Source: a bacterium
GTDB lineage: Bacteria > Bacteroidota > Bacteroidia > Bacteroidales > UBA3663
Assembly (NCBI GenBank): GCA_963631395.1
Contig: CAVGQN010000001.1
Span: forward strand, 1,368 to 65,367
Reading direction: 5' to 3'
Length of the DNA: 64,000 nt
The translations under genes and the position numbers were made by a program. Below are positions 10,869 through 53,138 of this stretch, one piece after another. The notes under the pieces were generated by a model. The model saw only the letters and a list, made by a program, of their open reading frames with translations, made no database searches and was not told where the DNA came from. The first letter of the stretch is position 1; each line of letters opens with the position of its first letter.

Positions 10869-10905
10869 TGGTTATAAGTAAAAGTTGAAAGTTAAAAAAA
10901 TCTAT

Positions 10906-14214: not shown

Positions 14215-14264
14215 TTGAGATTTGTATGACGAATGAAGAATTAAAGGTTAGAAAGGATATAACA

Positions 14265-15893: not shown

Positions 15894-15914
15894 AACCATT
15901 GACAAATCAACGTT

Positions 15915-39547: not shown

Positions 39548-39555
39548 CAAAGATA
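39548..39555 (-). promoter_or_regulatory. -7 box TATCTTTG (minus strand) for the phosphohexomutase gene
   Basis: Plus-strand caaagata lies 50 nt upstream of the start at 39498. It separates this gene transcriptionally from the operon upstream. Confidence 0.45.
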
Positions 39556-39677
39556 ACGAACTTTTTGCAAATGCCGTAACAATCTGTCCGAAAAAAGCGA
39601 AAAGATGCTGCGAAACATATTGCCGCTCCCTATTGCGGCCCTTTGAACCTCTGGTCCCGATGGCTTGACCGAGTCTG

Positions 39678-40715
39678 TCAGAAGCGGGGATAGCAGAACT
39701 TGTCGTTGTCGGAGGTGAAATGCAGGCCAGGCAGGGTGAAGCCTTTCTCCAGCGGGCAACAGTAGGTGTTGAGCTTGTGGTAGTCCGTGCCGTCGAGCGC
39801 ATAGTAGCGGATGGTATCGCTGGTGATGACGGAGGCCGTCCAGTCGATGAGATTGCCGATAATCATCAGGCTCTCTTCTTTCGGCTTGTAGCTGTCGATG
39901 CCCGTCCGGACGAGTCGGTAGTCGGGAGTCAGCACATACACGTAGTGGTCGGTGTCGACGGCGAGACCGCGCAGTTGTCGTGCTGCCGGTTCGAGGATGA
40001 AGACATGGGCCAGCGTGATGCTGTCGGGGACCTCAAACTCACGAACGAACGGACGTCCGGCGCAGCGCTTCAACTGGAACAGACGGTGATTGGCATCCAG
40101 CAGGAGATAACCCTCATCGTAGGGCTTCTTGACTATCGGATTGCCCGATGCATCCAGGACGGGGAACTGGAATCCCTTTTCCTTGAGGGCCTGGGTGAAA
40201 CGTTGGCTCTTCTCCGGTTTAATCTGATTGGTCTCCATCTTGATAAACTCAATGCCGTCGTCGGTGAAACGGAACACATCGTCGGGCATCTCGAGGTCCA
40301 CACGTTTGGGCAGGCTCTCGAGCAACTGGTAGAGCTGCACGTTGTTGGCATTGATGTCACGTGGACTGATGCGCATGTTGAAGTTCGTCTGACGAATCTG
40401 ATGGGGTGTGACGGCATGGCCCAGTACGGTGTCGGGCATACGTCCGTGTGACACCAGCACACTCGTGAAGAAAAGGGGCAGGAGAGAGTCGCCTTCGGCC
40501 TCTGTATACGTCTTGCCAGTAAGGGCACCCGTGACGCGCACGCCCTCGCCCTCGGGATGCTCTTTGACGATGAAGTCATTGGCCAAAGAACTGTAGAGGG
40601 TGAATTTGGTATGTGTGGACGAGGCGGTAACCAGATTGACCAGCCAAGGCAGTTGCCATAGCAGTAGGAAGGCCACGATAAGCGACAGAATGGTTTTAGC
40701 CAAAGTATTGAGCAT
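39678..40715 (-). CDS. N-terminally membrane-anchored protein, DUF4857-like (by recollection); last gene of the eight-gene operon
   Basis: 345 aa. A single N-terminal TM helix (MLNTLAKTILSLIVAFLLLWQLPWLVNLV) is followed by a soluble domain. The gene lies 27 nt after the permease gene. Confidence 0.55.
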   Translation of the reverse strand: MLNTLAKTILSLIVAFLLLWQLPWLVNLVTASSTHTKFTLYSSLANDFIVKEHPEGEGVRVTGALTGKTYTEAEGDSLLPLFFTSVLVSHGRMPDTVLGHAVTPHQIRQTNFNMRISPRDINANNVQLYQLLESLPKRVDLEMPDDVFRFTDDGIEFIKMETNQIKPEKSQRFTQALKEKGFQFPVLDASGNPIVKKPYDEGYLLLDANHRLFQLKRCAGRPFVREFEVPDSITLAHVFILEPAARQLRGLAVDTDHYVYVLTPDYRLVRTGIDSYKPKEESLMIIGNLIDWTASVITSDTIRYYALDGTDYHKLNTYCCPLEKGFTLPGLHFTSDNDKFCYPRF

Positions 40716-40742
40716 ATTGTTTCTCTATAAGCGTGTTAAACA

Positions 40743-41399
40743 TTACTCCTTGCCTTCCTTAAACCGCGCGATGCTAATCCAGCTGAGGGGCAGCAGGGCG
40801 AGGGTGAAGAGAGACAACCACGGCAGGAACCCGTTGTATGAGGTCGGGATGCTGCACACAAAATAAATCCTTACCACCAGCAGGGCGACAATCAGATTGA
40901 ACACTCGTCCGCGCCAGGTCGGTTCGAGGATAATCCATGCTCCCAGCAGGTAGGCTGCGAGTCCGGCCAGATACCAGGGGAGAGCAGTCAGCAGGATGCG
41001 GCTCCAGAGTTCGACGACCAGAATCTGCTCGAGGTAAACCCACAACAGCAGCAGGTTCAGTAGGCTGCAGACCACCATGGCGATGAGTCCGAAGGCCAGC
41101 ATCTGCGTGACGACACGGAGATGCGGGGCGGGCAGATGGAGGGTGAGCTTGAGGCACTTGTGGTACATCTCAGGCACAAACTGCACGATGGCCAGCAGTG
41201 TGCCGGCTATCAAGGGCACGAACTGTAGCGTGTTGATGAAAGTCGCATCGCGCGTTATGATGACGAACCAGACATGGTCGATGCCCTTTCGAGCTATGAG
41301 ACCATGTAGAAACAGCAGGCAGTACCCGACGACGCCCAATGTCGCAATGAGCATCAGCAGCAGATACCAGCGTGTCTTGATCCATTCTTTGTAATACAT
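40743..41399 (-). CDS. Polytopic membrane protein, probable ABC-2-type permease partner
   Basis: 218 aa with about six hydrophobic segments. The gene lies 29 nt after the ABC ATPase gene. Confidence 0.55.
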   Translation of the reverse strand: MYYKEWIKTRWYLLLMLIATLGVVGYCLLFLHGLIARKGIDHVWFVIITRDATFINTLQFVPLIAGTLLAIVQFVPEMYHKCLKLTLHLPAPHLRVVTQMLAFGLIAMVVCSLLNLLLLWVYLEQILVVELWSRILLTALPWYLAGLAAYLLGAWIILEPTWRGRVFNLIVALLVVRIYFVCSIPTSYNGFLPWLSLFTLALLPLSWISIARFKEGKE

Positions 41400-41428
41400 A
41401 TATGTAAAGAGAGAGTTATGGGTGCATA

Positions 41429-42322
41429 TTAATATTTGCCTGTAAGGCCGATGAAGGCATCTTCCAGATTCAGGGTCTCGACAGTCATATTGTCGTCAAA
41501 CGGAACGCCATCGGCCAAAAGACGCTGCTCGACCTCTTCTTGCGGCAGGAACGAGTAGACCTCAAAGGTGCTGACGGTGACCGAGGGGTGGAAGAGCTCG
41601 CTGTCGCTGAATCCAGGACTGTAGCCGACGGGCACCGTGCAGGTGTACCGGCGCAACTTGTTGAGCAAGTCCTGCATTGGCTCTTGGATGAGGATGTGCC
41701 CGTAGTCCATGATGATACAGTCGTCGATGAGACGCTCCATGTCCTGGATGATATGGCTGGTCAGGAAGACGGTCTTGCCTTCGGCTTTGACAAATTCCCG
41801 CAAGTAGTCGACAAACAGTCGGCGATAGCCGGGGTCCAGTCCGATGGAGAAGTCATCGAGCACCAGCAGGTCGGGGTTTTGGGCCAGGATAAGTCCCAGT
41901 GCGACCTGACTGCGCTGACCGCACGACATGCGCGATATCATCTGCTTGGGGGCAACCTTCAGCTTGGACATCAGTTCGTAGTATGCGTCCTTCCTCCACT
42001 GACCGGGATAGAACTGAGCGTAGAACTTCTCGATTTGCTCGATGTTCATAAACTGATACTGCACATGTCCCTCGATGAGCAGTCCAATCTGCCGGCGCAG
42101 TGCAGGGTCCATGGTCTGGATGTCTTGACCGAAGATCTTGCACACACCGGAGCGGGGTTTGAGATAGCCCGACAGGATGTTGATGGTTGTGGTCTTGCCG
42201 GTGCCGTTTTTCCCCAGTAAGCCCAGGATACGGCCTTTCGGTACCTCAAAGCTGAGGTCCTCATAGATTTTGTGCTTGCCGTAGTAGTGGGTGAGGTGTT
42301 GGCACGAAATGACGGAATCCAT
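41429..42322 (-). CDS. ABC transporter ATP-binding protein (ABC-2/NatA-like exporter type)
   Basis: 297 aa. Walker A is GKNGTGKTT, the signature is MSCGQRSQ and Walker B is LLVLDD. A C-terminal extension of about 80 aa is present. Confidence 0.85.
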   Translation of the reverse strand: MDSVISCQHLTHYYGKHKIYEDLSFEVPKGRILGLLGKNGTGKTTTINILSGYLKPRSGVCKIFGQDIQTMDPALRRQIGLLIEGHVQYQFMNIEQIEKFYAQFYPGQWRKDAYYELMSKLKVAPKQMISRMSCGQRSQVALGLILAQNPDLLVLDDFSIGLDPGYRRLFVDYLREFVKAEGKTVFLTSHIIQDMERLIDDCIIMDYGHILIQEPMQDLLNKLRRYTCTVPVGYSPGFSDSELFHPSVTVSTFEVYSFLPQEEVEQRLLADGVPFDDNMTVETLNLEDAFIGLTGKY

Positions 42323-42372
42323 TATACTTAGTCTGTTTTATGAAATAGTTGGTCTTAGTGTGTCTGTGTTTT

Positions 42373-42999
42373 TCAGTCCTCGACGGGGACAACCTCGTAG
42401 GCTGTGGCCTCGATGTGGTAGAAAGAGAGATACTCCTTGCCCTCGGCTTCCTTGCGCTGGGCTATCTCGGCACGGTAGGCTTCAATCTTTTCGTCGATGG
42501 TGTTGCCCTGTTCGCGGCGAGCCTTGCTCTCGGTGGCACAGCCTGTGGCTGTAGAGACCTCCTCGTTGTTTTCTGCAGAGGGTTCGCCGAACTGCGCTTC
42601 GGCTACGGCCTGAGCCTGCTGCTCGGCAACGGCTTCCTCATAGCGCTGTTTCCAGTTCTGGAGATAGGCCTCGTCCATACGTGTCTCGCGTACATAACCA
42701 GTCACGCGCACTACGTTCTTTACGCAGTCCTTGCTGAAGGCGCCCAAAGTGGCAGCCTCGCAACGGAGGATATTGTCGTCGTTGCTGCCCATCAGGAATA
42801 TCTTGGTAGCTCCGTGGCGGCAGGTATGGGTGCAGACGCCTTCGACGGTAACCAACTGGTCGGTGAGGCTGTCGGCTTTCTCGAGTACCTGGTCCACGCT
42901 GAGGGCTTCAGGCTCTTCAGCCTTACTGTTGTTTTTGTTGCCGCCACAAGAGGTGAGGGTCAAAGCAGCTACGAGCACTGCAAAAAGCATCTTTTTCAT
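42373..42999 (-). CDS. Cys/His-rich lipoprotein of unknown function
   Basis: 208 aa with lipobox LTLTSCGG. The N-domain is VTVEGVCTHTCRHGATKIFLMG...LRCEA...KDCV...VRVTGYV (a C-x3-C-x-H cluster plus further Cys residues). An E/A/Q-rich helical region follows, then a short C-terminal beta segment. Confidence 0.6.
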   Translation of the reverse strand: MKKMLFAVLVAALTLTSCGGNKNNSKAEEPEALSVDQVLEKADSLTDQLVTVEGVCTHTCRHGATKIFLMGSNDDNILRCEAATLGAFSKDCVKNVVRVTGYVRETRMDEAYLQNWKQRYEEAVAEQQAQAVAEAQFGEPSAENNEEVSTATGCATESKARREQGNTIDEKIEAYRAEIAQRKEAEGKEYLSFYHIEATAYEVVPVED

Positions 43000-43046
43000 A
43001 ATGTCTGTCTTTTATTGTTGTTTTGTTTTTATTTCTATATTCTTTG

Positions 43047-43184
43047 TTCTAAACTCTAAATTCTAATTTCTAAGTTCACTTCGTGTTCATTTCCTCGCCA
43101 TGGCAAAACTCAAGCAAGCTTGGTTCTGCTCATTTGGCTTACGAAAATGTTCTAAGTTCTAAATTCTAAGTACTAAGTTCTTAA
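43047..43184. repeat. Two blocks of TTCTAAR heptamer tandem repeats flanking a 75-bp unique core, inside the operon
   Basis: The left block (43047-43074) is ttctaaa ctctaaa ttctaat ttctaag. The right block (43150-43184) is ttctaag ttctaaa ttctaag tactaag ttcttaa. The core contains the palindromes gccatggc and aagctt. Confidence 0.75.
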
Positions 43185-43187
43185 TCC

Positions 43188-44699
43188 TCAGAACGTGCAT
43201 CCTATCCGCAGTTCGTACGACTGCCGGTGGGTGTTGTCCCAATCGAACGTCGTCTCCCATCCCTTTTGCCAGTTGGCGTCCAAGGTGACATACAGCCGCA
43301 GGCGGTTGGCGAGGATTTTCTGTCCGTATCCGAAGGAGAGTCCCGCTTGTCCCTGTCGGCAGGTCATATAGTCGGCACGTTTGTCCAGCAGGCTTTGCCA
43401 GGTGGTGAGGTTGGAGGTTTGCAGGGTGCTTCCGCCTGCGTAGATGCCGTCGTCAGCACGTTCTCCGCCTCCGTCGCTGTATCCGCCCCGGAGGGTCAGT
43501 CCCCAGTCGTGGACATCGTGCATCCAGCGCCGTGTCCCCTCTATCTGGATGGACTCTGCGTGCAGGTCCTGTTGGCGGTAGTTCGGGTAGTAGCTGGCTA
43601 TCAGCTTCCGGTTGTCGTATTGCGCGGTGGCCTTCAGTTGCCAACGGTTCAAGTCGAGACAGTAGGAGAGAGAGGCCGAGACCTTCTCACGCCGACTGGT
43701 CTGTAACGTGCCGTGGTAGCTATATTCCTTGATGCCGTTGCCTTGGTTGGTGTATTGGAAGAGGTTGCGGTCGTTCTCCATCCGGTAGCCTTGCAGCTGG
43801 AGGGAGAGTGTGTGCCGTCCGTAATCCAGTTGCGAGCGGGCGCTCCAGTTGAGACCCTCGTTTTCCATAAAGACGGGCGTGTAGAGTGACTGCTTGCCGT
43901 AGAGACCCGAAGCCCAGTCCAGATGTCCGTCGCTGTACCAGGTGAGTCCGCCGGCCGTCTTCATATTCAGTTGCACGCCGAAGCCGTAGCTGCTTTCCAC
44001 CCAAGGGCGTGACTGATTCTCCTCTATAAGTCCGTTGGATGTGCTGTATTCGGTGACACCGAAGGCAGCACCATAATCGATGAGGGAGGAGTACTGCCGG
44101 TCGGTAGTGCCGAAGGTCTTGAAGTTGAGTTCCTCGACGGTGCGGCGGTAGTAGAGGTCTGCACCTACACTCCACACATCGTTGGCACGCCATAGCAATC
44201 CCGCAGTGACATTGAGATTGAGCAGCTTGTTCTGATGGCGGAGGTCCTTCTGCTTCACGTAGTTGGCTGCGGTGAGGTTCATCCTCGCACCTAAAGCGAT
44301 CTGGCCGACACTGCCGCTCAATCCACCGGAGAGGAAATAGCGCTCGAGTTTCTTGATCCCCGCATTCTCGCTCCCTTCGACGATGTCGAAAGGCCGGTCG
44401 TCGGGGTTAATCCATGCTGAGCCGCACATGTTGTGGCCCGTAAAGTTGGCATAGGCCATTCGGCCGTCCATGACCCAGCGTGTGCCGATACGGCAGACCG
44501 ATGCGGCCTGTGCTCCCCAAGTGAAGTCGTCGTCCGAACTGCTATAGTCCACCCATGCGCCATTGTCTTTGCGGGCAAAGGTCTCGGCATAGCTGACCTG
44601 CTCTGCACTGTCGGGCAACAGGCAGAGAACAGCTGCATTGGAGCCGGTCAGGTAGGGGCTAATCGCGAAGAGCAGATTGATAGCGCTCGAAGAAATCAT
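43188..44699 (-). CDS. Outer-membrane beta-barrel protein of unknown function (DUF6850-like by recollection)
   Basis: The ORF is 43188..44762. I prefer the ATG at 44699 (MISSSAINLLFAIS...). Amphipathic beta-strand periodicity runs throughout, and the C-terminus is ...YELRIGCTF. The gene overlaps the upstream gene by 41 nt (104 nt if it starts at 44762). Confidence 0.6.
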   Translation of the reverse strand: MISSSAINLLFAISPYLTGSNAAVLCLLPDSAEQVSYAETFARKDNGAWVDYSSSDDDFTWGAQAASVCRIGTRWVMDGRMAYANFTGHNMCGSAWINPDDRPFDIVEGSENAGIKKLERYFLSGGLSGSVGQIALGARMNLTAANYVKQKDLRHQNKLLNLNVTAGLLWRANDVWSVGADLYYRRTVEELNFKTFGTTDRQYSSLIDYGAAFGVTEYSTSNGLIEENQSRPWVESSYGFGVQLNMKTAGGLTWYSDGHLDWASGLYGKQSLYTPVFMENEGLNWSARSQLDYGRHTLSLQLQGYRMENDRNLFQYTNQGNGIKEYSYHGTLQTSRREKVSASLSYCLDLNRWQLKATAQYDNRKLIASYYPNYRQQDLHAESIQIEGTRRWMHDVHDWGLTLRGGYSDGGGERADDGIYAGGSTLQTSNLTTWQSLLDKRADYMTCRQGQAGLSFGYGQKILANRLRLYVTLDANWQKGWETTFDWDNTHRQSYELRIGCTF

Positions 44700-46005
44700 T
44701 GTTTGAGTTGTTTGTGTCTTGATAGATGATGACGGCTCCGTTGCGGACCGAAGCCTCGGCATTGATGCCGGCAGGGTCGCAGACCACTACGGTGGCCGGT
44801 TCGCCAGTCGTGGACGGCAGGCCGTAGACGATTTTCCCGGCGTTGCCCTCAATGGCCAGTGTGGACTTCATGTCAACGATGCGGTGGAGCGAATAGCCTA
44901 GCTGGTTGGTCAGATAGGCAGCCCCGGCATCGACGGCATCGGTGAGTCGCTTGCGGTTTTGCGACGAGGTCGTAGTGAAGACCTCGATGGCGTCTACAAT
45001 CCACTCTATCGGTATCTTCAGACAGGCGTAGATAGGCGAACTCTTTCCCTCGCTGTACCAGATGTTGCCGTTGTCGGCAGCAAAAGCCATCGGAGTGATG
45101 CTGTCGGGAATGTTGAAGATAAAGAACGCCGGTGCAGTCGTACTCAGAGGCCATGCTGTGCCCTGTCCGTAGAAAGCTGCCTTGAGATAGTGGCTTTGGG
45201 GGATGAGGGTCGACGGCACGGGGTAGTAGTTCGTGTTGGTGAACGTCAGCGGGTCGTAGGTGCAGTAGTATTCGCCCTTCGAGAGGTCGACGGAATTGCT
45301 GTACGTCTTGGTGTGGTCGATGGCCCCATCCATGGCAATGGTCAGCTCCTCGTTGCCCTGGAGCGTGATGGAGTCCTGGAAGTACCAGATGGCCTGGATG
45401 GCAGGAATAAAGCCGGCGTTGGCATAGGTCAGAACTCCGTTTTTGTAGTTGCTGTTGTTGCCTTGGGCATTGTAGGGAGCGGCCATGGCCAGACAGAGTT
45501 GCCGCATTGTGACTGGCGTCTGCCCGTTATTGTAGATCGTGCAGTATTGGTCAAAGCGGTAGCTGCCAGAACCATCGTCTTTGGCACATCCGCCGTTGTA
45601 GAGTTCCTTGATGACGAGACTGCCCTTGCGTGAGGACGAGAGGGTAAACGACAAGGGGTCGATGCCGTTTTTGCACGAGTCGGCCGAGATGCAAATCTCA
45701 TTCGAACTCAAGTTCAGCAGATACGACACTCCGTATTCGTCCGTGTATGATGCCGAAGCTGATATACTGTACAGACCGGCCGGAAGTCTGAAGTCAGCGA
45801 TGCCGTCCGTGTCGGTGCTCGCACTCCACACATTGCCGGAGGAAGAGGTGATAAAGACATCCACGTCGGAGATGTTGCCGCCCGTGATCGGATTGGACAA
45901 GGTCACGGACACCTGGAAGGTCTCGTAGTCAAGACTTTCGTCGATGCATGCCGGCAGGGAGAGTAGCGTCAGCAATGCGCATAGGAGAAAACCGTTCTTG
46001 TTCAA
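44659..46005 (-). CDS. Surface lipoprotein, DUF4876-like (Ig-like N-domain plus lamin-tail-like domain) by recollection
   Basis: 448 aa. The only start codon that keeps the lipoprotein signal (MNKNGFLLCALLTLLSLPAC) is the TTG at 46005, 4 nt after the TBDR stop. The N-terminus is a CarboxypepD_reg-like beta-sandwich (DVDVFITSSSGNVWSASTDTDGIADFRLPAGLYSISA), followed by LVIKELYNGGC.... Confidence 0.6.
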   Translation of the reverse strand: MNKNGFLLCALLTLLSLPACIDESLDYETFQVSVTLSNPITGGNISDVDVFITSSSGNVWSASTDTDGIADFRLPAGLYSISASASYTDEYGVSYLLNLSSNEICISADSCKNGIDPLSFTLSSSRKGSLVIKELYNGGCAKDDGSGSYRFDQYCTIYNNGQTPVTMRQLCLAMAAPYNAQGNNSNYKNGVLTYANAGFIPAIQAIWYFQDSITLQGNEELTIAMDGAIDHTKTYSNSVDLSKGEYYCTYDPLTFTNTNYYPVPSTLIPQSHYLKAAFYGQGTAWPLSTTAPAFFIFNIPDSITPMAFAADNGNIWYSEGKSSPIYACLKIPIEWIVDAIEVFTTTSSQNRKRLTDAVDAGAAYLTNQLGYSLHRIVDMKSTLAIEGNAGKIVYGLPSTTGEPATVVVCDPAGINAEASVRNGAVIIYQDTNNSNNDFFERYQSALRD

Positions 46006-46009
46006 TGTC

Positions 46010-48877
46010 TCAGAGTTTTAGTTTCAGTGTCATACCGTAGTAGAAAGACGGAATCTTGCCGCTCTCGTAGAGTGAGGTATTCCGGTCAGTCGCCGACGAG
46101 TGGTACAGAGAAGTATTGTTCCAGAAGTTGGTGGCATAGAACGACACGGAGACGTGCTTGCCGATTTCTTTGGTGACGTTGAGGTTGGTCGAGAAATAGG
46201 GCGAAATCCGGTCTTTCGTGAAGAAATAGCCGGTGGAGCTGATTCGTATCAGCTTTGCCAGGTCGTTATAGAGATTTACGTCCGTCTCCTTGAGTGCCGT
46301 GAGTTCGTCGGCCGAAGGATAGCGGACCAGTTCGTCGGGATTGGCCCAGGTCGAGTAGTACTCCGGAAGGACGGCCGAATAGTAACCCATATAGCCGTCA
46401 ATCCGTCGGTCGTTGGTGCGCTGCGATACTTCGAGGAACGTACACTCGAAGCGCAGGGAGACAATCAGACTGATGACGGGGATGTGCGTGGTAGCCGTGA
46501 CGTTGGTGTTGAGCGTGGTTTTGTAGCTACCGGTGGCTACGTTGTTGCCCGTATAGTATCCGACATATCCGTAGGGTTGGCCGTCCGACTGTTTTTGAGT
46601 CAATGTCGTATAGGCCATGAGGGTGCGTTCGTTGCCACGATAGTGATAGAGGTCGCCGTCCACGCGGATTTGGGTGTTGAGGGCGCGGATTTTGGCGAAG
46701 TCGATGACCCACTCCAGGCCCTTGCGCGTGACCGTCGAACCGTTAATCCACTTTGTGTTGGACGTCAGGCGGTGTACCGTCTCGCTGGGGAGAACGGACT
46801 GCTGCGTAGGGTTGGAGAGGCTAGTGGCCGTCACATTGCCCGTTTGTCCGTCGATGGTGTAGGTGTATTGGTCGGCATTGGCCAGCGGGGCAGTGTATTC
46901 GTAGCTGAATGGCGTGTAGACAGTCGAAGACACATACGGGTTGTGTGTCGCATTGCGGAAACAGGTCACGCTGATGCGTGTACCTTTGATGAGGACTTCG
47001 ACTCCCAATTCGTGCTGTATGCTGTACTGCCACTTGAGGTCCCGATTGTAGAGTGCCCGTGTCGGATTGGTGTAGTAGGCATAGACGGCCTGTCCGAGGG
47101 CATCGGTGCCCGACGCGAATGTCTGCCAGTCGGCATAGGTAGTGGTCGGATAGAGCACCTGCATGGACGGTAGTTTGACGGCCTTGCCGAAGCCTGCGGT
47201 CAGAATCAGACTTTCGAGTGTGCGTTTCTTGTTGCCGAAGACATTCCACCGCACGGTGCCGCGGGGAGAGAGGCTGCTTGCCGTCCCGTATTCCGATTTG
47301 GCGATATGCGTGAGGTCTTCGCGCAGGCCGAGCACGACCTGCAGGTTGCCACCGTTGTGGAACGGCATCCGCATACGGTCCTCCACATACAGTCCGATGT
47401 TGTGCATGTAGGGCAGTGTGTCGTATCGGGCCTCGCGCCAGTTCTCCGTGGCGAGGGTCAGGTCCTCGTAGTGAAGGCCCTTGCCGTTGTTGCCCGACAG
47501 GGTGTAGTCGACGCCTGCCTTCACGTAGTTGGACATGAAGGTCCAGTCCTGTGACCATTTGGCCTTGAGGTGGAATCCGGCATCAATGGGTTTGCTGTCG
47601 GTGATGGCGAGGTTGTACCAATAGCCCGTCGGACCCATGATAATCGTGTTGCCGTCTGCGATGTGGTAGCCTTGTTCGGTCGTGTGGACGTATGGCTGGG
47701 AGGAGGCGCTGTTGCAGTTTGTGTTGACCTTCTGCCGCTTGTCCTGCATACTTACGTCAGCACGCAGTTCGATTTCTGACAGCCAGGCGCGGTCGGGTTG
47801 CCAGTCCATACGGATTTGGCCGCGGAGGGCATAGTCCCTTTTCTTGGTGTAGGTGTCGCTGAAGGCATCCGGGTCGGCCTTGCTGTTCTGTCCGCCCACG
47901 TTGCCCTTGAGGTCCACGCACAACAGGAGGGGTGAGCCTTGCTCCTGTGCCAACTGACGGGAGTAACGCAGTGTCAATCCGTTGCGTGTATAGCTCGTAT
48001 AGGGCGAGGAGATGTCCTTGTAGCTGCGTGCCCACTCGTAGTTGGCATTCAGAATACCGTTCTGGCTGTTGCGGCCCAGGTCAAAGCCCTTGCCGATAGA
48101 GACGAGTTTGGTGTGCGGTTTGACCGTAGCGTCGACTGACAGAGGCGTCTTGCCACGGCGGGTTCTTACCTTGACGATACCGTTGGAGAGGTCGCCGTGT
48201 TCCACGCTGGCGATGCCGGTGACAATCTCGATGCTCTCGATGTCGCTGGTGGAGAGCGTGCGGGTCGAAGCGCCGTTCGTCTCGCTCATCTCGGCGTTGT
48301 TGCCGATGCGCATGCCGTCGACCTCGATGGCCGACCCGAAAGCCGGATTGCCCTTCTCCGTGTTGCTCTCGCTGCGTAGGGCAAGACGTTCGTCATTCAT
48401 CAAGCTGAGGTCGCCCTGGCTCTTGCCGCCCGGCAGCAGTGCCATCACATCGCTGACGTTGACAATCTGGTTGTGGTCCATGGCCGTCCGGTCGATGTGG
48501 TAGTCTGTTGAAGCCTCCAGTTCCGCCCTTTCGGCCGAGACCGTGACTTCCTCCAGTTTGAGACTCGCCTTCTTGAGCTGGACTACGATGCCCGTCGTGT
48601 CCTTGCGCAAATCGAGGACGAGCTGTTGGGACGCATAGCCGAAATAGCGGATTTCGAGCGAGACCTTTCCACCGGGGAGACGACCCAGTGAGAAAGCTCC
48701 GTCGGTGTCGACCGTCGTTCCTTGACGGGACTCCAGGTGAAGGACAGTGGCAAAGTCAAGTGGCTCGCCAGTGTCGGCATCCACCACTCTGCCAGAAACG
48801 AGGTATGGCTGCGCAGACAATATTATTGCCTGTGCAGCCATCCATATTGATATGCAGAGTAGCAGTGCTCTCTTCAT
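46010..48877 (-). CDS. TonB-dependent receptor (CarboxypepD_reg + plug + 22-strand barrel type)
   Basis: 955 aa with a signal peptide. The N-terminus is VSGRVVDADTGEPLDFATV...DGAFSLGRLPGGKVSLEIRYFGY. The plug includes IEIVTGIASVEHGDLSNGIVKVRTRRG. The C-terminus is ...YYGMTLKLKL. Confidence 0.85.
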   Translation of the reverse strand: MKRALLLCISIWMAAQAIILSAQPYLVSGRVVDADTGEPLDFATVLHLESRQGTTVDTDGAFSLGRLPGGKVSLEIRYFGYASQQLVLDLRKDTTGIVVQLKKASLKLEEVTVSAERAELEASTDYHIDRTAMDHNQIVNVSDVMALLPGGKSQGDLSLMNDERLALRSESNTEKGNPAFGSAIEVDGMRIGNNAEMSETNGASTRTLSTSDIESIEIVTGIASVEHGDLSNGIVKVRTRRGKTPLSVDATVKPHTKLVSIGKGFDLGRNSQNGILNANYEWARSYKDISSPYTSYTRNGLTLRYSRQLAQEQGSPLLLCVDLKGNVGGQNSKADPDAFSDTYTKKRDYALRGQIRMDWQPDRAWLSEIELRADVSMQDKRQKVNTNCNSASSQPYVHTTEQGYHIADGNTIIMGPTGYWYNLAITDSKPIDAGFHLKAKWSQDWTFMSNYVKAGVDYTLSGNNGKGLHYEDLTLATENWREARYDTLPYMHNIGLYVEDRMRMPFHNGGNLQVVLGLREDLTHIAKSEYGTASSLSPRGTVRWNVFGNKKRTLESLILTAGFGKAVKLPSMQVLYPTTTYADWQTFASGTDALGQAVYAYYTNPTRALYNRDLKWQYSIQHELGVEVLIKGTRISVTCFRNATHNPYVSSTVYTPFSYEYTAPLANADQYTYTIDGQTGNVTATSLSNPTQQSVLPSETVHRLTSNTKWINGSTVTRKGLEWVIDFAKIRALNTQIRVDGDLYHYRGNERTLMAYTTLTQKQSDGQPYGYVGYYTGNNVATGSYKTTLNTNVTATTHIPVISLIVSLRFECTFLEVSQRTNDRRIDGYMGYYSAVLPEYYSTWANPDELVRYPSADELTALKETDVNLYNDLAKLIRISSTGYFFTKDRISPYFSTNLNVTKEIGKHVSVSFYATNFWNNTSLYHSSATDRNTSLYESGKIPSFYYGMTLKLKL

Positions 48878-48901
48878 AGTAGTGTGACGTCTATTGTAGT
48901 T

Positions 48902-50668
48902 TTACTTTCTCCAAATGATACGGCCGTTCAGAATCTGCAGTCCTGTGCCATTGTTGTGGCGTCCGTAGAGGTCATAGACTGTAGCATTGGCACTTTGGGC
49001 AGCCTCGATGTCCTGGATGCCGGAGGCGTCAGAGTCAAGGGCATAACTGGTGAGACCCTTGCCGATTGTGCAGTTGTCGTTGATAACGACAGTCGTCTTG
49101 AGTGTCTCGTCCTTAGTGTCATTTTCAGTCTGCATACCGCGGAGGTTGCCGGTGGTAGCGGCATCGGAACTTGAAATCTCGGCGTAGTTGGCACAGGCAT
49201 CAAGAGTGACAGTGCAGTTGCGGTTTCCTGGAGCAGCTCCAAAAATGCCGGCCACATACGATGTGCCCGATACAATGCCGTTGTTCGTACAGTTGCTGAT
49301 CAAGATGTCCTTTTGGTCGCCTTTCATCGCATAAGCGAGGATGCCGCTCGTATATTTGGCTCCAGTAATGGTTCCGTTGTTGGTACAATTGGAAATCTTG
49401 AGGTCATAGTTGCCATTGGCGATGATGCCGGCTGTGTACTGCTTACTGCCGGTTACGGTTCCGTTGTTCTTACAGTCGCGTATCTCTCCGCTGTAACTGC
49501 CTACAATACCTGAAGTGCCGGTGCCGAGTTTGGTCGAGACACTGCCGAAATTGTAGCAACCGTCGATGAGGTATTCGCTGGTTACAGTTTTGATTGTCTG
49601 TGTCATACCCACGATGCCGGCGGCATAGGTCTGGGCATATATACTGCCGTAGTTTTGGCAGTCTTTGACGGTGCCCTTGGCTCCATACAGGTAGCCGCAA
49701 ATGCCTCCTGCTGCAACGCCGGTGTCGGTGATGTCGGCATAATTTATGCAATTTTCGATGGTGCCATGACACACACTGGAAATGGCGCCTGCGTACCAGT
49801 AGCTGTTGATGTAGTTAGATGCACCCATAACCACATTGCGTACGATGCCCTTGTCTGTAATGGCAGCGAAGAGGCCATTGAACATGCCGGCAGTGTCCTT
49901 TTCGCAGTTGTTGTGGTAGATGCCTGTGACTGAGTGGCTTTGACCGTCAAATGTGCCGCTGAATCCGTAGGTGACAGTGTTGAGGTTTACGATGCCAAAC
50001 TTGCCGATAGCGGGGAGTGGTACGGGATTGGCTTCAGAACCGCCGAAGTCAATGTCGTTCATCATCACGAAATATTCGCCCGCGCCCATGTTTGTTTCGC
50101 TGATATTCTTGGCCATGGCCCGGAAGTCGGCGGCGTCATAGATTTTGTAGGGATTGGCTTCCGAGCCTGCACCTGCCAGTTGCCAGGAGTTCTGCGGTGT
50201 GTGGTAGCCGTCCATTTTGTAGGTGACTGACACAGGCATACTGCCGTAGGAGAACGTAGCGCTCAGTTGCATGCCTCCTTTGTTGGCGTCGTACGAGACG
50301 GTTATGGTGCCGGACACGTCTTTAGTCTGTCCATCAGTGCCTGTGGCTTTGGTCGTGAACTTCTGGTCAGTACAAGTGATGGTCTTGGCAGTCATGTCCA
50401 TCGAGCAACTGATGCTGTCGATGACAAACGAAGGGAGGGTCATGTTTGAGGCTGCATAGTACAGCGAGGGTAGCTTAGCCTTAACATAATAGGTTGCGGC
50501 ATTGAAGCCAAACAAGTCAAACACCACGGTGTCTTTAAGTGCGGTGGTCGTAGTCTGGTCCTCCATCCCGGGGACGAAGAACGTGCTGGTTCCGACGAAG
50601 TTAGATTCCTCAGCGGTAGCGGATATCGCAGCAGATGCCGCAAACAATAGCGTAAAAATTTTCTTCAT
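48902..50668 (-). CDS. T9SS-secreted GLUG-like repeat (beta-helix) surface protein; first gene of the operon
   Basis: 588 aa with a signal peptide. There are at least six repeats of C-x-N-x-G-x-[IV]-x(5-9)-[AG]-G-I-x-[GA], for example CQNYGSIYAQTYAAGIVG, CKNNGTVTGSKQYTAGIIA, CTNNGTITGAKYTSGILA and CTNNGIVSGTSYVAGIFG. The C-terminus ATVYDLYGRHNNGTGLQILNGRIIWRK is a T9SS CTD. Confidence 0.7.
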   Translation of the reverse strand: MKKIFTLLFAASAAISATAEESNFVGTSTFFVPGMEDQTTTTALKDTVVFDLFGFNAATYYVKAKLPSLYYAASNMTLPSFVIDSISCSMDMTAKTITCTDQKFTTKATGTDGQTKDVSGTITVSYDANKGGMQLSATFSYGSMPVSVTYKMDGYHTPQNSWQLAGAGSEANPYKIYDAADFRAMAKNISETNMGAGEYFVMMNDIDFGGSEANPVPLPAIGKFGIVNLNTVTYGFSGTFDGQSHSVTGIYHNNCEKDTAGMFNGLFAAITDKGIVRNVVMGASNYINSYWYAGAISSVCHGTIENCINYADITDTGVAAGGICGYLYGAKGTVKDCQNYGSIYAQTYAAGIVGMTQTIKTVTSEYLIDGCYNFGSVSTKLGTGTSGIVGSYSGEIRDCKNNGTVTGSKQYTAGIIANGNYDLKISNCTNNGTITGAKYTSGILAYAMKGDQKDILISNCTNNGIVSGTSYVAGIFGAAPGNRNCTVTLDACANYAEISSSDAATTGNLRGMQTENDTKDETLKTTVVINDNCTIGKGLTSYALDSDASGIQDIEAAQSANATVYDLYGRHNNGTGLQILNGRIIWRK

Positions 50669-50739
50669 TTGATTTGTATTTAGAGTTTATGTTTTGACTA
50701 CGCGAACACCGGTCAACAGGAGACCCGATTTTCAAAGCG

Positions 50740-50747
50740 CAAAGATA
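50740..50747 (-). promoter_or_regulatory. -7 box TATCTTTG (minus strand) for the eight-gene operon
   Basis: Plus-strand caaagata lies 72 nt upstream of the start at 50668. I found no other exact TAnnTTTG box between here and 39678. Confidence 0.45.
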
Positions 50748-50900
50748 CGGACTATAATTTGGCCGTGAAATACCTACATCTTGGTATATTTCTTTGCTAC
50801 TTGTTATATTGTTCGCGCGCACGTGTGAGACAAGTGCACACACGGCCTACTCTCATATACTTAGGTTGCGGCTTGGGGACAAAGCCCCAAGTCGAACCGG

Positions 50901-52040
50901 TCAGCGGTTGGCGTACATCGACTCGTAGTACTTTTCGTACTCGCCCGAAGTGATGTTGTCCATCCAGGCCTGGTTCTCCAGATACCACTTGACCGTTTTC
51001 TCGATGCCTTCCTCAAACTGCAGCGAAGGTTCCCAACCCAGTTCGCGCTGGAGTTTGGTCGAGTCGATGGCGTAGCGTGCATCGTGGCCCAAGCGGTCGG
51101 TGACGTATGTGATAAGGTCGAGGTCCTCGCCCTCCTTGCGTCCGAGCAGACGGTCGACGGTCTTGATGACCACCTTGATGATGTCGATGTTCTTCCACTC
51201 GTTGAAGCCGCCGATGTTGTAGGTCTCGGCCACAGTGCCCTTGTGGAAGATGAGGTCGATGGCGCGGGCATGGTCTTCAACAAAGAGCCAGTCGCGCACG
51301 TTCTCGCCCTTGCCGTACACCGGCAACGGTTTGCGGTGACGGATGTTGTTGATGAAAAGGGGAATCAACTTCTCGGGGAACTGGTACGGACCATAGTTGT
51401 TCGAGCAGTTGGTTACGATGGTCGGCATCCCGTAGGTGTCGTGGAAGGCACGGACGAAGTGGTCTGAGCTGGCCTTGGAAGCAGAGTACGGTGAGTGCGG
51501 ATTGTACTTGGTGGTCTCGTAGAAGAAATCCGAGCCGTAGGCCAAATGATGCTCGGCGCTCGATGCCGTGGTAGAGAACGGAGGCTTGATGCCTTCCGGC
51601 TTGTCCATCTTGAGGGCGCCGTACACCTCGTCGGTCGAGATGTGGTAGAAGCGCTTGCCCTCGTACTTCTCGGGCAGAGACTCCCAGTAGAGCTTGGCGG
51701 CCTGGAGCAGAGACAGCGTACCCATCACGTTGGTGCGGGCGAAGGTGAAGGGGTCCTTGATACTGCGGTCCACGTGACTTTCTGCGGCCAGGTGGATGAT
51801 GCCGTCGATGTGCTCGTCCTGCATGAGCTGATAGAACGCGTCAAAGTCGCAGATGTCCATCTTGACAAACTTGTAGTTGGGTTTGTCTTCGACATCTTTG
51901 AGGTTGGCCAGATTGCCGGCATAGGTCAACTTGTCCAGATTGATGATGTTGTAGTCCGGATATTTGTTGACGAAGAGACGTACGACATGAGAGCCAATAA
52001 AGCCGGCGCCGCCGGTGATTACAATATTGCGTTTTGCCAT
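50901..52040 (-). CDS. rfbB: dTDP-glucose 4,6-dehydratase
   Basis: 379 aa. The Rossmann motif is TGGAGFIGSH and the catalytic motif is YSASKASSDH. It is colinear with RmlB. Confidence 0.9.
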   Translation of the reverse strand: MAKRNIVITGGAGFIGSHVVRLFVNKYPDYNIINLDKLTYAGNLANLKDVEDKPNYKFVKMDICDFDAFYQLMQDEHIDGIIHLAAESHVDRSIKDPFTFARTNVMGTLSLLQAAKLYWESLPEKYEGKRFYHISTDEVYGALKMDKPEGIKPPFSTTASSAEHHLAYGSDFFYETTKYNPHSPYSASKASSDHFVRAFHDTYGMPTIVTNCSNNYGPYQFPEKLIPLFINNIRHRKPLPVYGKGENVRDWLFVEDHARAIDLIFHKGTVAETYNIGGFNEWKNIDIIKVVIKTVDRLLGRKEGEDLDLITYVTDRLGHDARYAIDSTKLQRELGWEPSLQFEEGIEKTVKWYLENQAWMDNITSGEYEKYYESMYANR

Positions 52041-52071
52041 AGGGCTTGTTTATTACAGGTTGTTGATTATT

Positions 52072-52155
52072 TTATGGGTTGCACCTTATGATAGTTTATG
52101 GGTTGCACCTCATCATAGGGCGCGCGTCTTCTTATGGGAGGTACATCTTCCGGGA
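52072..52155. repeat. 24-bp direct repeats (two near-identical, one degenerate) in the rfbA-rfbB spacer
   Basis: The units are ttatgggttgcaccttatgatagt (52072-52095), ttatgggttgcacctcatcataggg (52096-52120) and ttatgggaggtacatcttccggga (52132-52155). The last abuts the rfbA stop codon. Confidence 0.75.
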
Positions 52156-53052: not shown

Positions 53053-53138
53053 AGGTTTAGGGGTTGTTTGTTTTTTGTTGTTCTAGATTGCGGAGTGGAC
53101 TTCTGCTTTCTGCTTTGTCCGATTCCCTTATTTTGGCA

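Follow-up and report, generated by a model that had tools for sequence, protein, structure and literature searches.

The eight genes listed in Table 1 are a real operon of an uncultured gut or rumen Bacteroidales bacterium, and we consider it somewhat probable (about 0.55) that they form a single operon of the iron-starvation type, through which a ligand that bears iron is taken up with the help of TonB, a variant of the BT3625-BT3633 cassette of Bacteroides thetaiotaomicron. The operon lies in a 64,000-nucleotide stretch of DNA, called the window here.

Layout of the operon and conservation of its neighbourhood

Table 1. Features of the operon (positions in the window)
Feature	Position	Strand	Description
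g1	48902-50668	-	588-aa secreted protein
g2	46010-48877	-	955-aa TonB-dependent receptor
g3	44659-46005	-	448-aa DUF4876 lipoprotein, TTG start
g4	43188-44699 (ORF up to 44762)	-	DUF6850 outer-membrane barrel protein, ~500 aa
g5	42373-42999	-	208-aa Cys/His lipoprotein
g6	41429-42322	-	297-aa ABC ATPase
g7	40743-41399	-	218-aa six-TM permease, ABC-2-like
g8	39678-40715	-	345-aa DUF4857 protein
Bacteroidota-type -7 box TATCTTTG	50740-50747	-	sequence reading; ~70 nt 5' of g1 start codon
Insertion between g4 and g5	43000-43187	-	two TTAGAAY heptad arrays + hairpin
Weak terminator-like hairpin	39622-39639	-	consensus scan; 39 nt 3' of g8 stop

An earlier, sequence-only reading had described eight co-directional minus-strand genes behind a single TAnnTTTG box, separated by gaps of 24, 4, -41, 188, 50, 29 and 27 nt and followed by a phosphohexomutase gene with a box of its own. 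We found every open reading frame, every gap and both boxes where that reading had placed them. The box upstream of g1 is the sole minus-strand TAnnTTTG from 39556 to 53138, the next one (39548-39555) being that which precedes the phosphohexomutase gene, and the box and its flanks are kept in the relative L005, which is 96% identical. At the 3' end, the consensus scan that gave the hairpin in Table 1 returned no more terminator-like hairpins in the region than expected by chance. No riboswitch was found in the window, which makes control of the cobalamin or thiamine type unlikely, and no Fur-type operator could be defined at this locus.

The long gap between g4 and g5 has the claimed size, but it is a recent lineage-specific insertion, since the gap at the same place in L005 measures 58 nt and is without the inserted segment. 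Two arrays of four TTAGAAY heptads each (43150-43183 and 43040-43073) flank a hairpin of ~62 nt (z = -3.3); 8 heptad-pair matches were observed versus 1.2 expected, and the heptads are absent from the rest of the window. There is no TAnnTTTG box within the 188 nt.

DUF4857, the family of g8, is encoded in 368 species genomes, from which we fetched 80 loci for comparison. The Cys/His lipoprotein, the ATPase and the permease accompany DUF4857 in 72 of 73 loci, and genes for the TonB-dependent receptor (TBDR), DUF4876 and DUF6850 adjoin this ABC half in 65 of the 69 assessable loci. The two halves occur together in Bacteroides, Phocaeicola, Alistipes, Parabacteroides, Odoribacter and Dysgonomonadaceae, and Phocaeicola vulgatus has the same layout with a deeply diverged TBDR/DUF4876/DUF6850 subfamily. 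The co-occurrence is thus conserved well beyond close relatives, and an arrangement that recurs so widely in other species is far beyond chance. Adjacency survives both inversion of the outer-membrane genes and their relocation to the downstream side, which speaks for function over inertia. The outer-membrane genes are also found without the ABC half, in Porphyromonas gingivalis and in Prevotella-like genomes, which means that the receptor does not depend on the ABC half for its basic function.

Most relatives have one further gene, found in 66 of the 80 loci. Encoded between g5 and g6, it specifies a two-TM protein (PepSY_TM_like_2) related to ferric-siderophore reductases of the FoxB/XusC type. 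This window lacks it.

Outer-membrane and secreted proteins

The Pfam matches expected of g2, g3 and g4 from the sequence-only reading were all recovered. In g2 these are to an N-terminal carboxypeptidase-regulatory-like domain (CarbopepD_reg_2, 3.7e-18), a plug (Plug, 1.5e-6) and a barrel (TonB_dep_Rec_b-barrel, 5e-12), while the NCBIfam SusC model gave no match, so that g2 is by its sequence a TonB-dependent receptor that is not of the SusC type. It has no close relative with a solved structure. In g3 the DUF4876 match is strong (6e-26) and that to the lamin-tail domain weak (LTD, 0.005); the DUF4876 family has a solved structure, 4q1z (2e-35), with no assigned function. The lipobox cysteine of g3, Cys20, is followed by I-D-E, and its orthologues carry C-x-D-D/E, which resembles a lipoprotein export signal. 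AlphaFold-Multimer models place DUF4876 proteins on the outer face of the receptors BT3633 and BT1939, and the proximity of receptor and DUF4876 genes is conserved across 59 genera (10.1101/2023.03.17.533168). Based on these models, the conserved proximity and the export-signal-like motif of the orthologues, g3 is predicted to be a surface-exposed "lid" of the receptor g2.

The third member of the trio, g4, matches DUF6850 along its whole length (2e-29), as expected of an outer-membrane barrel protein of unassigned family. It ends in ...GCTF, overlaps g3 by 41 to 104 nt, has a short N-terminus that is atypical in this clade, and has no solved relative, even by profile search. In related loci the DUF6850 gene always lies 3' of the DUF4876 gene.

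The product of g1 carries a signal peptide of type I (SPI), lacks a lipobox and consists of a ~140-aa N-terminal domain, about seven "C-x-N-x-G" coils and a ~40-aa C-terminal tail; forms of 455 aa without the N-terminal domain also exist (alignment A5). The coils appear to be beta-helix-like and GLUG-like. However, no Pfam or NCBIfam model matches g1 at E<=0.01 and its own Glug match is sub-threshold (E=0.2), so the GLUG label given to it holds only through relatives at 45% identity, which have a precomputed Pfam Glug match (one of them with Calycin_like). The type IX secretion (T9SS) C-terminal domain, or Por_Secre_tail, that had been assigned to g1 is not borne out, as no sorting-domain model matched g1 or its relatives even at E<=10. 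A g1 homologue lies directly 3' of TBDR-DUF4876-DUF6850 in Prevotella-like contigs, and g1 is present in just 3 of the 80 loci that carry the ABC half.

The Cys/His lipoprotein and the ABC module

The C-x3-C-x-H cluster reported in g5 is real and invariant across its relatives, where it forms part of the set C56-T-H58-x-C60-x-H62-G, C92 and C154 (alignments A2 and A4), which is four cysteines and two histidines not counting the lipid-anchor cysteine. No Pfam or NCBIfam family covers g5. Its family comprises 918 cluster representatives, nearly all of them stand-alone proteins of ~200 aa, and in one relative the C154 segment is amplified into Cys/His-rich repeats. The structure model (pLDDT 84) shows an OB fold barrel and a helical hairpin, and no acidic residues follow the lipid cysteine; g5 is predicted to be a periplasm-facing OB-fold lipoprotein. 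The invariant residues, the OB fold and the amplified repeats make it a putative metal binder. Fe(II) is not the only candidate for so Cys-rich a ligand set, which would fit Cu(I), Zn or an Fe-S cluster equally, and the cysteines could also be structural disulfides.

In g6, a match to ABC_tran (2e-22) goes together with Walker A GKNGTGKT, signature MSCGQ, Walker B LLVLDD-F and H-loop FLTSH. It is an ABC ATPase, as had been claimed, but the statement that its Walker B is intact holds only in part, because Asp replaces the catalytic Glu, as it does in 79 of the 79 orthologues examined, and the signature reads MSCGQ. The best NCBIfam matches (drrA, PmtA and GldA) all fall far under their cut-offs. 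The assignment of g7 as an ABC-2-type permease is likewise indirect: g7 has no Pfam or NCBIfam match of its own, and weak ABC2_membrane_5 or ABC2_membrane_2 matches occur in 4 of 17 orthologues (best 0.0068). Based on these and on the models nearest to g6 (drrA, PmtA, GldA and NodI), g6 would be an ATPase of the type that partners ABC-2 permeases. The orthologues of g7 share an invariant cytoplasmic loop, PEMxxKxxKLTLHLP (alignment A3). The expected DUF4857 match of g8 is very strong (5.6e-97). Its model (pLDDT 87) has a TM helix at residues 2-30 that serves as N-terminal membrane anchor and a periplasmic part made of a mixed alpha/beta and a beta-rich domain, for which Foldseek found only a weak beta-propeller likeness (TM ~0.3); its invariant residues include neither Cys nor His. 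Neither g7 nor g8 has a sequence relative in the PDB.

Iron regulation, a proposed mechanism and rival readings

The regulation data come from B. thetaiotaomicron, P. gingivalis and P. intermedia. All nine genes BT3625-BT3633 rise 37- to 128-fold upon iron depletion; PG1019-22 of P. gingivalis, which represent the outer-membrane part only and respond to iron or haem limitation, rise 21- to 214-fold, and an outer-membrane locus of the same type in P. intermedia is also induced (PMC10434189). These experiments used chelator and haem-limitation conditions, which do not separate the effects of iron from those of haem. The joint rise in B. thetaiotaomicron is in line with the two halves being one unit, and together with the invariant Cys4His2 set of g5 it lends support to the earlier proposal that the genes may encode a trans-envelope system which acquires or handles a metal.

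In the literature we found neither an experiment that assigns a function to the gene set or its homologues nor one that ties any member to a substrate. BT3625-33 appear there only in the iron-stimulon transcriptome (PMC10434189) and in the lid-prediction preprint, in which BT3632 and BT3633 have no fitness phenotype in 519 fitness values per gene (10.1101/2023.03.17.533168); a 2026 paper calls PG1019/PG1020 an "uncharacterized transport system" (PMC13096392). The claim that no characterised counterpart exists therefore stands as regards function, but the cassette is known to the literature, only unexplained, and Xus, which consists of a TonB-dependent transporter, a surface lipoprotein and a PepSY reductase (PMC13142918), is a closer analogue than that claim allowed; the PepSY_TM-like gene of most relatives has no counterpart in this window.

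In the mechanism we propose, the eight genes would be transcribed from the box upstream of g1 when iron is scarce, as suggested by the single promoter box, by the short intergenic distances of close relatives and by the nine-gene co-induction in B. thetaiotaomicron. The lid g3 would help g2 to capture the ligand, which g2 would import with TonB energy, and g4 would be the obligatory third partner of the two; its role may be to anchor or insert either the lid or g1, or to release spent ligand. In this lineage, g1 may be an extra ligand binder in place of the Bacteroides surface/OMV lipoprotein BT3630. The PepSY_TM-like protein of most relatives suggests reductive release of Fe(II), a step that is unsupported in this locus, where the gene is missing. 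The Cys4His2 set of g5 would take up released metal in the periplasm. In the least certain step, a g6-g7-g8 complex would bind ATP and hydrolyse it slowly, and would either carry the metal or the ligand through the inner membrane or power their hand-over and recycling at its periplasmic face, much as NosDFY-NosL does for copper and CcmAB-CcmE for haem. We favour the latter for four reasons: neither a solute-binding protein nor a permease of the importer type is present; g7 itself exposes hardly any surface to the periplasm; genes for an accessory periplasmic subunit and for a metal-type lipoprotein always lie alongside; and Asp stands for the catalytic Glu throughout the g6 family. Such a mechanotransducer is an analogy only, since by hhalign g7 is unrelated to CcmB and g5 to CcmE, and no operon protein matches the NosD, NosL or NosY families, permissive thresholds included.

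A different possibility, which we regard as unlikely, is acquisition of haem or porphyrin, in which the receptor imports haem, g5 is its periplasmic chaperone (functionally akin to CcmE or to HmuT-like carriers) and the ABC module passes haem on. Cysteine and histidine are common haem axial ligands, and CcmE, the periplasmic haem chaperone, shares the OB fold and acts together with the ABC-2-type CcmAB; however, the hhalign comparisons with CcmE and CcmB speak against kinship, C-x3-C-x-H differs from the haem c motif, and four invariant cysteines exceed what haem ligation needs. P. gingivalis is a haem auxotroph, and its DUF4876/TBDR genes are among the most strongly induced under haem limitation and in a hemH mutant grown without haem. 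Excess haemin represses its DUF4876 gene (PMC10470040), and the PG1019 protein varies together with HmuY and flavodoxin (PMC12119571), two results that fit the iron reading as well. But P. gingivalis has no g5-g8, so its haem response is uninformative on the ABC half, and B. thetaiotaomicron already has an Hmu locus, which is induced in parallel with BT3625-33.

Piracy of protein-bound iron of the Fus or YddB-PqqL type, in which the receptor, its lid wide open, imports a small iron protein or peptide and the module in periplasm and inner membrane strips out the metal centre (an Fe-S cluster, for instance, that passes to the g5 Cys4 set), is quite improbable. In Prevotella-like contigs the TBDR-DUF4876-DUF6850-GLUG set is followed by genes for a 942- to 969-aa M16 peptidase and FMN_bind/Fer4_5 proteins, and after 9ldy the best solved relatives of this peptidase are PqqL (4e-60) and FusC (1e-27). 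An M16 gene also lies directly after DUF4857 in two Bacteroides ihuae-type loci (L069 and L075), and an opening of ~20 A remains in the predicted DUF4876 lids. In contrast, a protease gene is absent from this operon and from most of the 80 loci, no similarity of g2 to the solved structures of FusA or YddB could be detected, and the PepSY_TM-like gene of most loci suggests that a small Fe(III) chelate is reduced, not that a protein is cleaved.

We think it very unlikely that the metal is another thiophilic one (Cu or Zn), handled by a Nos-like system for maturation or delivery that lacks NosZ. The parts do parallel Nos (an ABC-2-class ATPase, a six-TM permease, a periplasmic accessory protein, a Cys/His lipoprotein and a beta-helix-like protein), with the receptor as NosA/OprC-like, g5 as NosL-like, g6/g7 as NosF/NosY-like and g1 or g8 as NosD-like, and the amplified repeats of the g5 relative resemble metallothionein. 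Against this stand the absence of Nos family matches, the lack of a cuproenzyme gene close by, regulation data that concern solely iron or haem limitation, and the rarity of g1 beside the ABC half, which means that g1 is not a NosD equivalent. It is hardly credible that the operon is two unrelated neighbours, an outer-membrane uptake trio (with g1) and an ABC-2 exporter (of a toxic compound, lipid or peptide, for example) with its own accessory proteins: ABC-2 ATPases usually belong to exporters, the trio occurs without the ABC half elsewhere and the 188-nt gap separates the halves here, but the adjacency holds across many genera and after inversion or transposition of the trio, the nine B. 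thetaiotaomicron genes are co-induced, and the gap is a recent insertion without a promoter box, missing from the nearest relative.

Read as an iron-starvation-type uptake system, the operon couples a gate for import in the outer membrane with an unusual, uncharacterised, ATP-driven module in the inner membrane, and it is a good, though not unheard-of, target for learning how these bacteria obtain iron.

Operon layout and the spacer between its halves

The ORF table bears out the eight consecutive minus-strand genes that the sequence-only reading had described here (g1 to g8, g1 first), and the spacings that it had claimed, 24, 4, -41, 188, 50, 29, and 27 nt, were reproduced. A scan for TAnnTTTG also upheld the claim of a single promoter box, with no second minus-strand match between 39556 and 53138, and it located the next match at 39548 to 39555, ahead of the phosphohexomutase gene, which had been said to have a box of its own. 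This gene and rfbA/rfbB-like genes flank the operon. Within the operon region, a consensus scan gave only as many terminator-like sites as expected from shuffled sequence. No Rfam match to a riboswitch or other RNA control element was found across the whole window, which argues against cobalamin- or thiamine-type loci. A Fur-type operator was not definable upstream by comparison with the one close relative that has upstream sequence, and the paper on the iron stimulon gives no operator motif (PMC10434189).

Depending on the choice of start codon, g4 and g3 overlap by 41 to 104 nt (44659 to 44762). The g4 N terminus is short in the window and in one related locus (L002), where it lacks the positively charged signal peptide and the ~25-residue segment that are usual in other DUF6850 proteins.

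The outer-membrane half of the operon (g1 to g4) and the ABC half (g5 to g8) are separated by the 188-nt gap, in which a stable hairpin of ~62 nt (z = -3.3) lies between two arrays of TTAGAAY heptads, a pattern confined to this spacer within the 64 kb. A separate promoter was sought in the gap, and the scans gave no TAnnTTTG box and one sigma-70-like match that is no better than chance. We rejected the possibility that the gap is a conserved boundary between two units, since the corresponding spacer in a 96%-identical relative (L005) is only 58 nt long and the extra sequence is missing. For the same reason, the gap seems to have arisen by a small insertion or duplication of recent date.

Features of the operon, with positions in the window
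Feature	Position	Strand	Description	Source
Promoter box TATCTTTG	50740-50747	minus	TAnnTTTG	
g1	48902-50668	minus	588 aa	ORF table
g2	46010-48877	minus	955 aa	ORF table
g3	44659-46005	minus	448 aa, TTG start	ORF table
g4	43188-44699	minus	503 aa; ORF reaches 44762	ORF table
TTAGAAY heptads, two direct arrays of four	43150-43183 and 43040-43073	minus	in the g4-g5 spacer, 43000-43187	
g5	42373-42999	minus	208 aa	ORF table
g6	41429-42322	minus	297 aa	ORF table
g7	40743-41399	minus	218 aa	ORF table
g8	39678-40715	minus	345 aa	ORF table

Predicted products of the eight genes

Profile searches matched most of the families that had been expected from the sequence. In Pfam, g2 has the CarbopepD_reg_2, Plug, and TonB barrel domains of a TonB-dependent receptor (TBDR), g3 matches DUF4876 (6e-26) and, weakly, a lamin-tail domain, and g4 matches the outer-membrane barrel family DUF6850 along its entire length (2e-29), while g6 and g8 match ABC_tran and DUF4857, respectively. 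None of the NCBIfam SusC models matched g2. The lipobox Cys of g3 is followed by acidic residues, and the C-x-D-D/E of its orthologues resembles the Bacteroidota lipoprotein export signal, which would fit a surface lid. Among the structure searches, DUF4876 is the sole operon family with a solved relative (4q1z); searches of solved structures with the single sequences of g1, g2, and g4 returned nothing useful, and a search with the DUF6850 profile returned nothing. A preprint predicts DUF4876 lids that open by ~20 Å on the Bacteroides thetaiotaomicron receptors BT3633 and BT1939, and reports that the proximity of DUF4876 and receptor genes is conserved in 59 genera and that BT3632 and BT3633 have no fitness phenotype in 519 fitness values per gene (10.1101/2023.03.17.533168).

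The product of g1 had been labeled a GLUG-repeat protein and cargo of the type IX secretion system (T9SS). It has no family match at E≤0.01 in Pfam or NCBIfam, and its own match to Glug (PF07581) is at E=0.2 with 12.6 bits, against a cut-off of 20.5. The GLUG label is reasonable only in that many relatives at 43 to 47% identity carry a precomputed Glug match. The T9SS label was rejected as unsupported: the sorting-domain models (Por_Secre_tail, TIGR04183 type A, and TIGR04131 type B) gave no match at E≤10 to g1, to its last 69 aa, or to two homologues, and no g1 homologue has a precomputed Por_Secre_tail match. The protein has an ordinary signal peptide with no lipobox and a conserved C-terminal tail of ~40 residues. 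It is encoded in only 3 of 80 related loci, and its homologues lie immediately 3' of the TBDR, DUF4876, and DUF6850 genes (hereafter the trio) in Prevotella-like contigs; g1 is part of the outer-membrane module.

Two proteins of the ABC half, g5 and g7, fall outside every Pfam and NCBIfam family. In alignments of 17 and of 25 diverse sequences, the g5 lipoprotein has an invariant C-T-H-x-C-x-H-G motif and two further invariant Cys (C56, H58, C60, H62, C92, and C154 in all). Its lipid-bearing Cys is not followed by acidic residues, from which we infer that g5 probably faces the periplasm. A model of g5 (pLDDT 84) has an OB-fold barrel and a long helical hairpin, and a fold search with this model found just generic tRNA-synthetase OB folds, with no functional lead. 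The family has 918 cluster representatives, and a domain-fusion ("Rosetta stone") search with the g5 profile found nearly all of them to be stand-alone proteins. In one homologue of 279 aa (P0370), the segment near the invariant Cys154 (GCxTExKA) is expanded to about five Cys/His-rich, metallothionein-like repeats of the form GC(C)xSE(H/Q)KACNxSCxK, which is what metal-binding proteins tend to do. An apparent DUF4857-g5 fusion of 585 aa (P0396) was rejected, as its g5 part retains its own signal peptide. It consists of a DUF4857 ORF with an extra C-terminal transmembrane (TM) helix and no stop before a g5-type gene that has its own lipobox; read-through or a sequencing artifact may account for it, and in this organism the lipoprotein gene follows DUF4857 and is not ahead of the ATPase. 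A third candidate, in which a g5 N terminus is joined to a histidine kinase (P0433), looks chimeric and was set aside.

The nearest NCBIfam models of the ATPase g6 are drrA, PmtA, GldA, RbbA, and NodI, all partners of ABC-2 permeases and all matched far below their cut-offs. Its Walker B motif had been called intact. The motif is indeed present (LLVLDD-F; LLVLDDFSIGLD), but the catalytic Glu is replaced by Asp, and this Asp is common to 79/79 orthologues. The signature of g6 is MSCGQ, and the orthologues have MSCGQ or MSNGQ instead of LSGGQ. The combination of Asp for Glu with an altered signature suggests that ATP turnover may be slow or regulated. An alignment of g7 and its orthologues can be read as an amphipathic N-terminal segment (Y-K-E-W-I-K-T-R-W) and six hydrophobic spans whose periplasmic loops are very short, together with an invariant loop on the cytoplasmic side, probably the ATPase contact; weak ABC2_membrane matches were obtained for only 4 of 17 g7 orthologues. 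The DUF4857 match of g8 is strong (5.6e-97, Pfam). This protein consists of a periplasmic domain and a membrane anchor that contains invariant Trp and Pro, and there is no Cys or His among its invariant residues. A fold search with the g8 model gave generic beta-propeller likeness only (TM ~0.3) and no functional lead, and profile searches of g5, g7, and g8 against solved structures gave nothing meaningful.

Conservation and iron regulation in relatives

When one genome was scanned for each GTDB species, relatives of DUF4857 turned up in 368 stretches; we fetched 80 of these loci and searched their six-frame ORFs with the window proteins and a second seed set. The gene neighborhood proved to be conserved across these loci. 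Genes for the Cys/His lipoprotein, the ATPase, and the permease lie ahead of DUF4857 in 72 of the 73 loci with enough upstream sequence, the order ATPase-permease-DUF4857 is the same in all 79 related loci containing these genes, and the trio lies next to these genes in 65 of 69 assessable loci. In most cases the trio precedes them and shares their strand; several loci, among them ones from Alistipes and Bacteroides pyogenes, have it in divergent orientation or downstream, without loss of adjacency. The layout also recurs in Phocaeicola vulgatus, whose trio is deeply diverged: it matches DUF4876 at 9e-72 and DUF6850 at 6e-78 but has only weak similarity to the window proteins. That adjacency has outlasted rearrangement and divergence argues that the outer-membrane and ABC halves are functionally coupled. 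The set, which we refer to as the cassette, is carried by B. thetaiotaomicron, B. xylanisolvens, B. intestinalis, B. faecis, P. vulgatus, Alistipes, Parabacteroides, and many uncultured lineages. The genomes closest to the window are a bin labeled "bacterium" (96% identity) and a goat-rumen Bacteroidales MAG (57%), and since the nearest DUF4857 relatives beyond the same species are just ~56% identical, the window comes from a sparsely sampled Bacteroidales lineage. Two bins labeled Coprobacillus sp. and Desulfovibrionaceae contain typical Bacteroidales cassettes (L013 and L034), most likely as misbinned contigs.

The B. thetaiotaomicron locus BT3625 to BT3633 is orthologous to g2 through g8 gene for gene, with equal order and strand (g2, BT3633; g3, BT3632; g4, BT3631; g5, BT3629; g6, BT3627; g7, BT3626; g8, BT3625), although identity to the window is just ~45 to 55%. 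Like it, the window has DUF4857 after the ATPase and a six-TM permease, a Cys/His lipoprotein, an ATPase with an MSCGQ/MSNGQ-type signature and the LDD-F motif, and the trio. The window is without equivalents of two B. thetaiotaomicron genes and begins with the GLUG-like g1 instead. One of these is BT3628, a PepSY_TM_like_2 protein. Genes of this type, for a two-TM protein of ~190 aa (PepSY_TM_like_2, 7.5e-18, and also PepSY_TM), lie between the lipoprotein and ATPase genes in 66 of 80 loci; in the window, the gap between g5 and g6 is only 50 nt, and the gene is likewise absent from L001 to L005, L033, L061, L070, L073, and L074. The other is BT3630, a lipoprotein of 541 aa that combines Mfa_like_1 and Fib_succ_major domains, that is found as an extra in 16 Bacteroides loci and whose signal peptide drives display on the cell surface and on outer membrane vesicles (PMC11554821).

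In Prevotella-like contigs (L081 to L084, ~2800 to 16400), TBDR, DUF4876, DUF6850, and GLUG genes are followed by a gene for an M16 peptidase of 942 to 969 aa and by FMN_bind/Fer4_5 genes, and the ABC/DUF4857 module is absent. Based on this pairing, we conclude that the outer-membrane set is a module that combines with differing periplasmic and inner-membrane partners. The Prevotella-type loci are possibly a Bacteroidota form of protease-associated iron import; after PDB entry 9ldy, the best solved relatives of their peptidase are PqqL and FusC. The 9ldy entry is a solved 916-aa "Peptidase, M16 family" that matches L083:11866-14775 at E=1e-185, and a literature search on it found no paper. In L081 and L082, a transposase truncates the DUF6850 gene. 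In Bacteroides ihuae (L069) and Bacteroides sp. UBA1317 (L075), an M16 peptidase homologue lies just past a complete cassette, 3' of DUF4857, so that both kinds of inner half occur within one locus.

Induction by iron limitation is shown for the whole cassette in B. thetaiotaomicron only and for the outer-membrane part in P. gingivalis and P. intermedia. All of BT3625 to BT3633 rise 37- to 128-fold when iron is depleted. For P. gingivalis PG1019-22, which encode DUF4876, the TBDR, and hypothetical proteins, the increase is 21- to 214-fold, and the corresponding P. intermedia locus is also induced (PMC10434189). In P. gingivalis, excess hemin represses the DUF4876 gene (PMC10470040), growth of a hemH mutant without heme induces it, and PG1019/PG1020 were termed an "uncharacterized transport system" in 2026 (PMC13096392). 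In the literature searched, we found no functional study of the cassette, the ABC half, g5, or DUF6850.

Proposed function and comparison with characterized systems

What the sequence-only reading observed is essentially right apart from the annotation corrections to g1 (GLUG and T9SS) and g6 (Walker B), and its proposal of a trans-envelope acquisition or handling system is supported and can be sharpened to acquisition of the iron-starvation type. Our main reading, to which we give a probability of roughly 0.55, is that the operon serves the TonB-dependent uptake of an iron-bearing ligand, with conservation and regulation demonstrated in relatives and with roles that we infer as follows. The lid (g3) and the receptor (g2), perhaps with g1, would capture and import the ligand, and the DUF6850 barrel (g4) would be an obligatory third outer-membrane partner. 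Where it is encoded, the PepSY_TM-like protein may reduce Fe(III), as is thought for XusC and FoxB. The Cys4His2 lipoprotein (g5) would take up the metal, and the ABC-2-type motor with DUF4857 would either translocate the metal or ligand or act in hand-over or recycling at the periplasmic face. Heme, protein-bound iron, and another thiophilic metal are all live alternatives.

Between the two roles for the motor, hand-over or recycling appears more likely than translocation, because the cassette lacks a solute-binding protein and a permease of the importer type, has only a minimal permease, always includes a periplasmic subunit together with a chaperone-like lipoprotein, and has an altered catalytic base. 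NosDFY-NosL delivers copper to N2O reductase and CcmAB-CcmE releases a heme chaperone, CcmE, which has an OB fold; both spend ATP on periplasmic hand-over and not on transport. Like the cassette, they combine an ATPase of the ABC-2 class and a minimal six-TM permease with an accessory protein facing the periplasm and a membrane-anchored chaperone for a metal or cofactor. Unlike them, the cassette is tied to a TonB-dependent receptor and to regulation by iron. No Pfam or NCBIfam match to the NosD, NosY, or NosL signatures was found in the operon, there are no nosZ or cytochrome c maturation genes near it, and homology of g7 to Escherichia coli CcmB and of g5 to E. coli CcmE was rejected (hhalign probabilities of 1.9% and 0.2%). 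The parallel is thus to be read as analogy and not as homology. A bolder reading, which we hold to be doubtful, is that g5 to g8 are a new class of ATP-driven periplasmic iron-handling machine, in which a slow Asp-for-Glu ABC-2 motor would act via the membrane-anchored DUF4857 subunit on a Cys4His2 OB-fold iron chaperone, loading, unloading, or recycling it, and this chaperone would be given metal from receptor-imported ligands. If this is true, g5 to g8 would form a counterpart for iron to NosDFY-NosL and CcmAB-CcmE, with no sequence relationship to either.

The closest characterized Bacteroides system is Xus, which consists of a TonB-dependent transporter (XusA), a DUF4374 surface lipoprotein (XusB), and a PepSY inner-membrane reductase (XusC), and for which it is stated that what becomes of the ferrous iron after its release is not known (PMC13142918). 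The machine proposed for g5 to g8, if real, would fill this gap by accounting for iron after its periplasmic release in Bacteroides. Both systems are induced by iron limitation and have a non-SusC TonB-dependent transporter with a surface lipoprotein, and most relatives of the cassette encode a PepSY_TM-type membrane protein. The lid is a DUF4374 beta-propeller in Xus and DUF4876 here, and the DUF6850 barrel, the OB-fold Cys/His lipoprotein, and the ABC-2 ATPase/permease/DUF4857 module are absent from Xus; none of the eight window proteins matches DUF4374, PepSY, or PepSY_TM.

The protease-associated import systems Fus and YddB-PqqL (PMC6793856) likewise join iron-regulated TonB-dependent import to periplasmic processing and an inner-membrane transporter, and a PqqL/FusC-type M16 protease accompanies the outer-membrane half in the Prevotella-like genomes. 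However, g2 shows no detectable relationship to either FusA or YddB, Fus has nothing that corresponds to the lid lipoprotein or the DUF6850 barrel, and the operon has no protease gene. As in the cassette, the Bacteroidota gliding-motility transporter GldAFG combines an ATPase of the ABC-2 type with a six-TM permease and an accessory subunit anchored on the periplasmic side, and neither system has a known substrate. The GldA model ranks with the best NCBIfam matches of g6 (1e-37), yet the 130.2 bits fall far short of its 402.6-bit cut-off; GldF and GldG match neither g7 nor g8, and the cassette stands in an iron-regulated receptor locus and not among motility genes. The operon also differs from SusC/SusD pairs in the partner of its receptor, which is DUF4876. 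Set against these characterized systems, the cassette is a variant of TonB-dependent iron uptake whose inner-membrane half is without precedent.

Bacteroidales dominate the human and animal gut, where iron is contested in inflammation and infection, and to our knowledge only Xus and Hmu have assigned functions in Bacteroides iron and heme uptake. Published work already shows the cassette as an iron-induced locus that lacks an explanation, and in B. thetaiotaomicron it is among the loci most strongly induced by iron limitation. It comprises three DUF families, two families outside Pfam and NCBIfam (g5 and g7), and an ATPase with a systematically altered catalytic site, and solving it would give functions to all of these. 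Its interest for specialists in Bacteroides metal physiology and in ABC transporters is moderate to high. The window is a natural minimal variant, with the GLUG-like g1 and without the PepSY-like gene and the Mfa/Fib lipoprotein, and it helps to define the core parts of a cassette that could reveal an iron route in this phylum from the outer-membrane gate to the cell interior.
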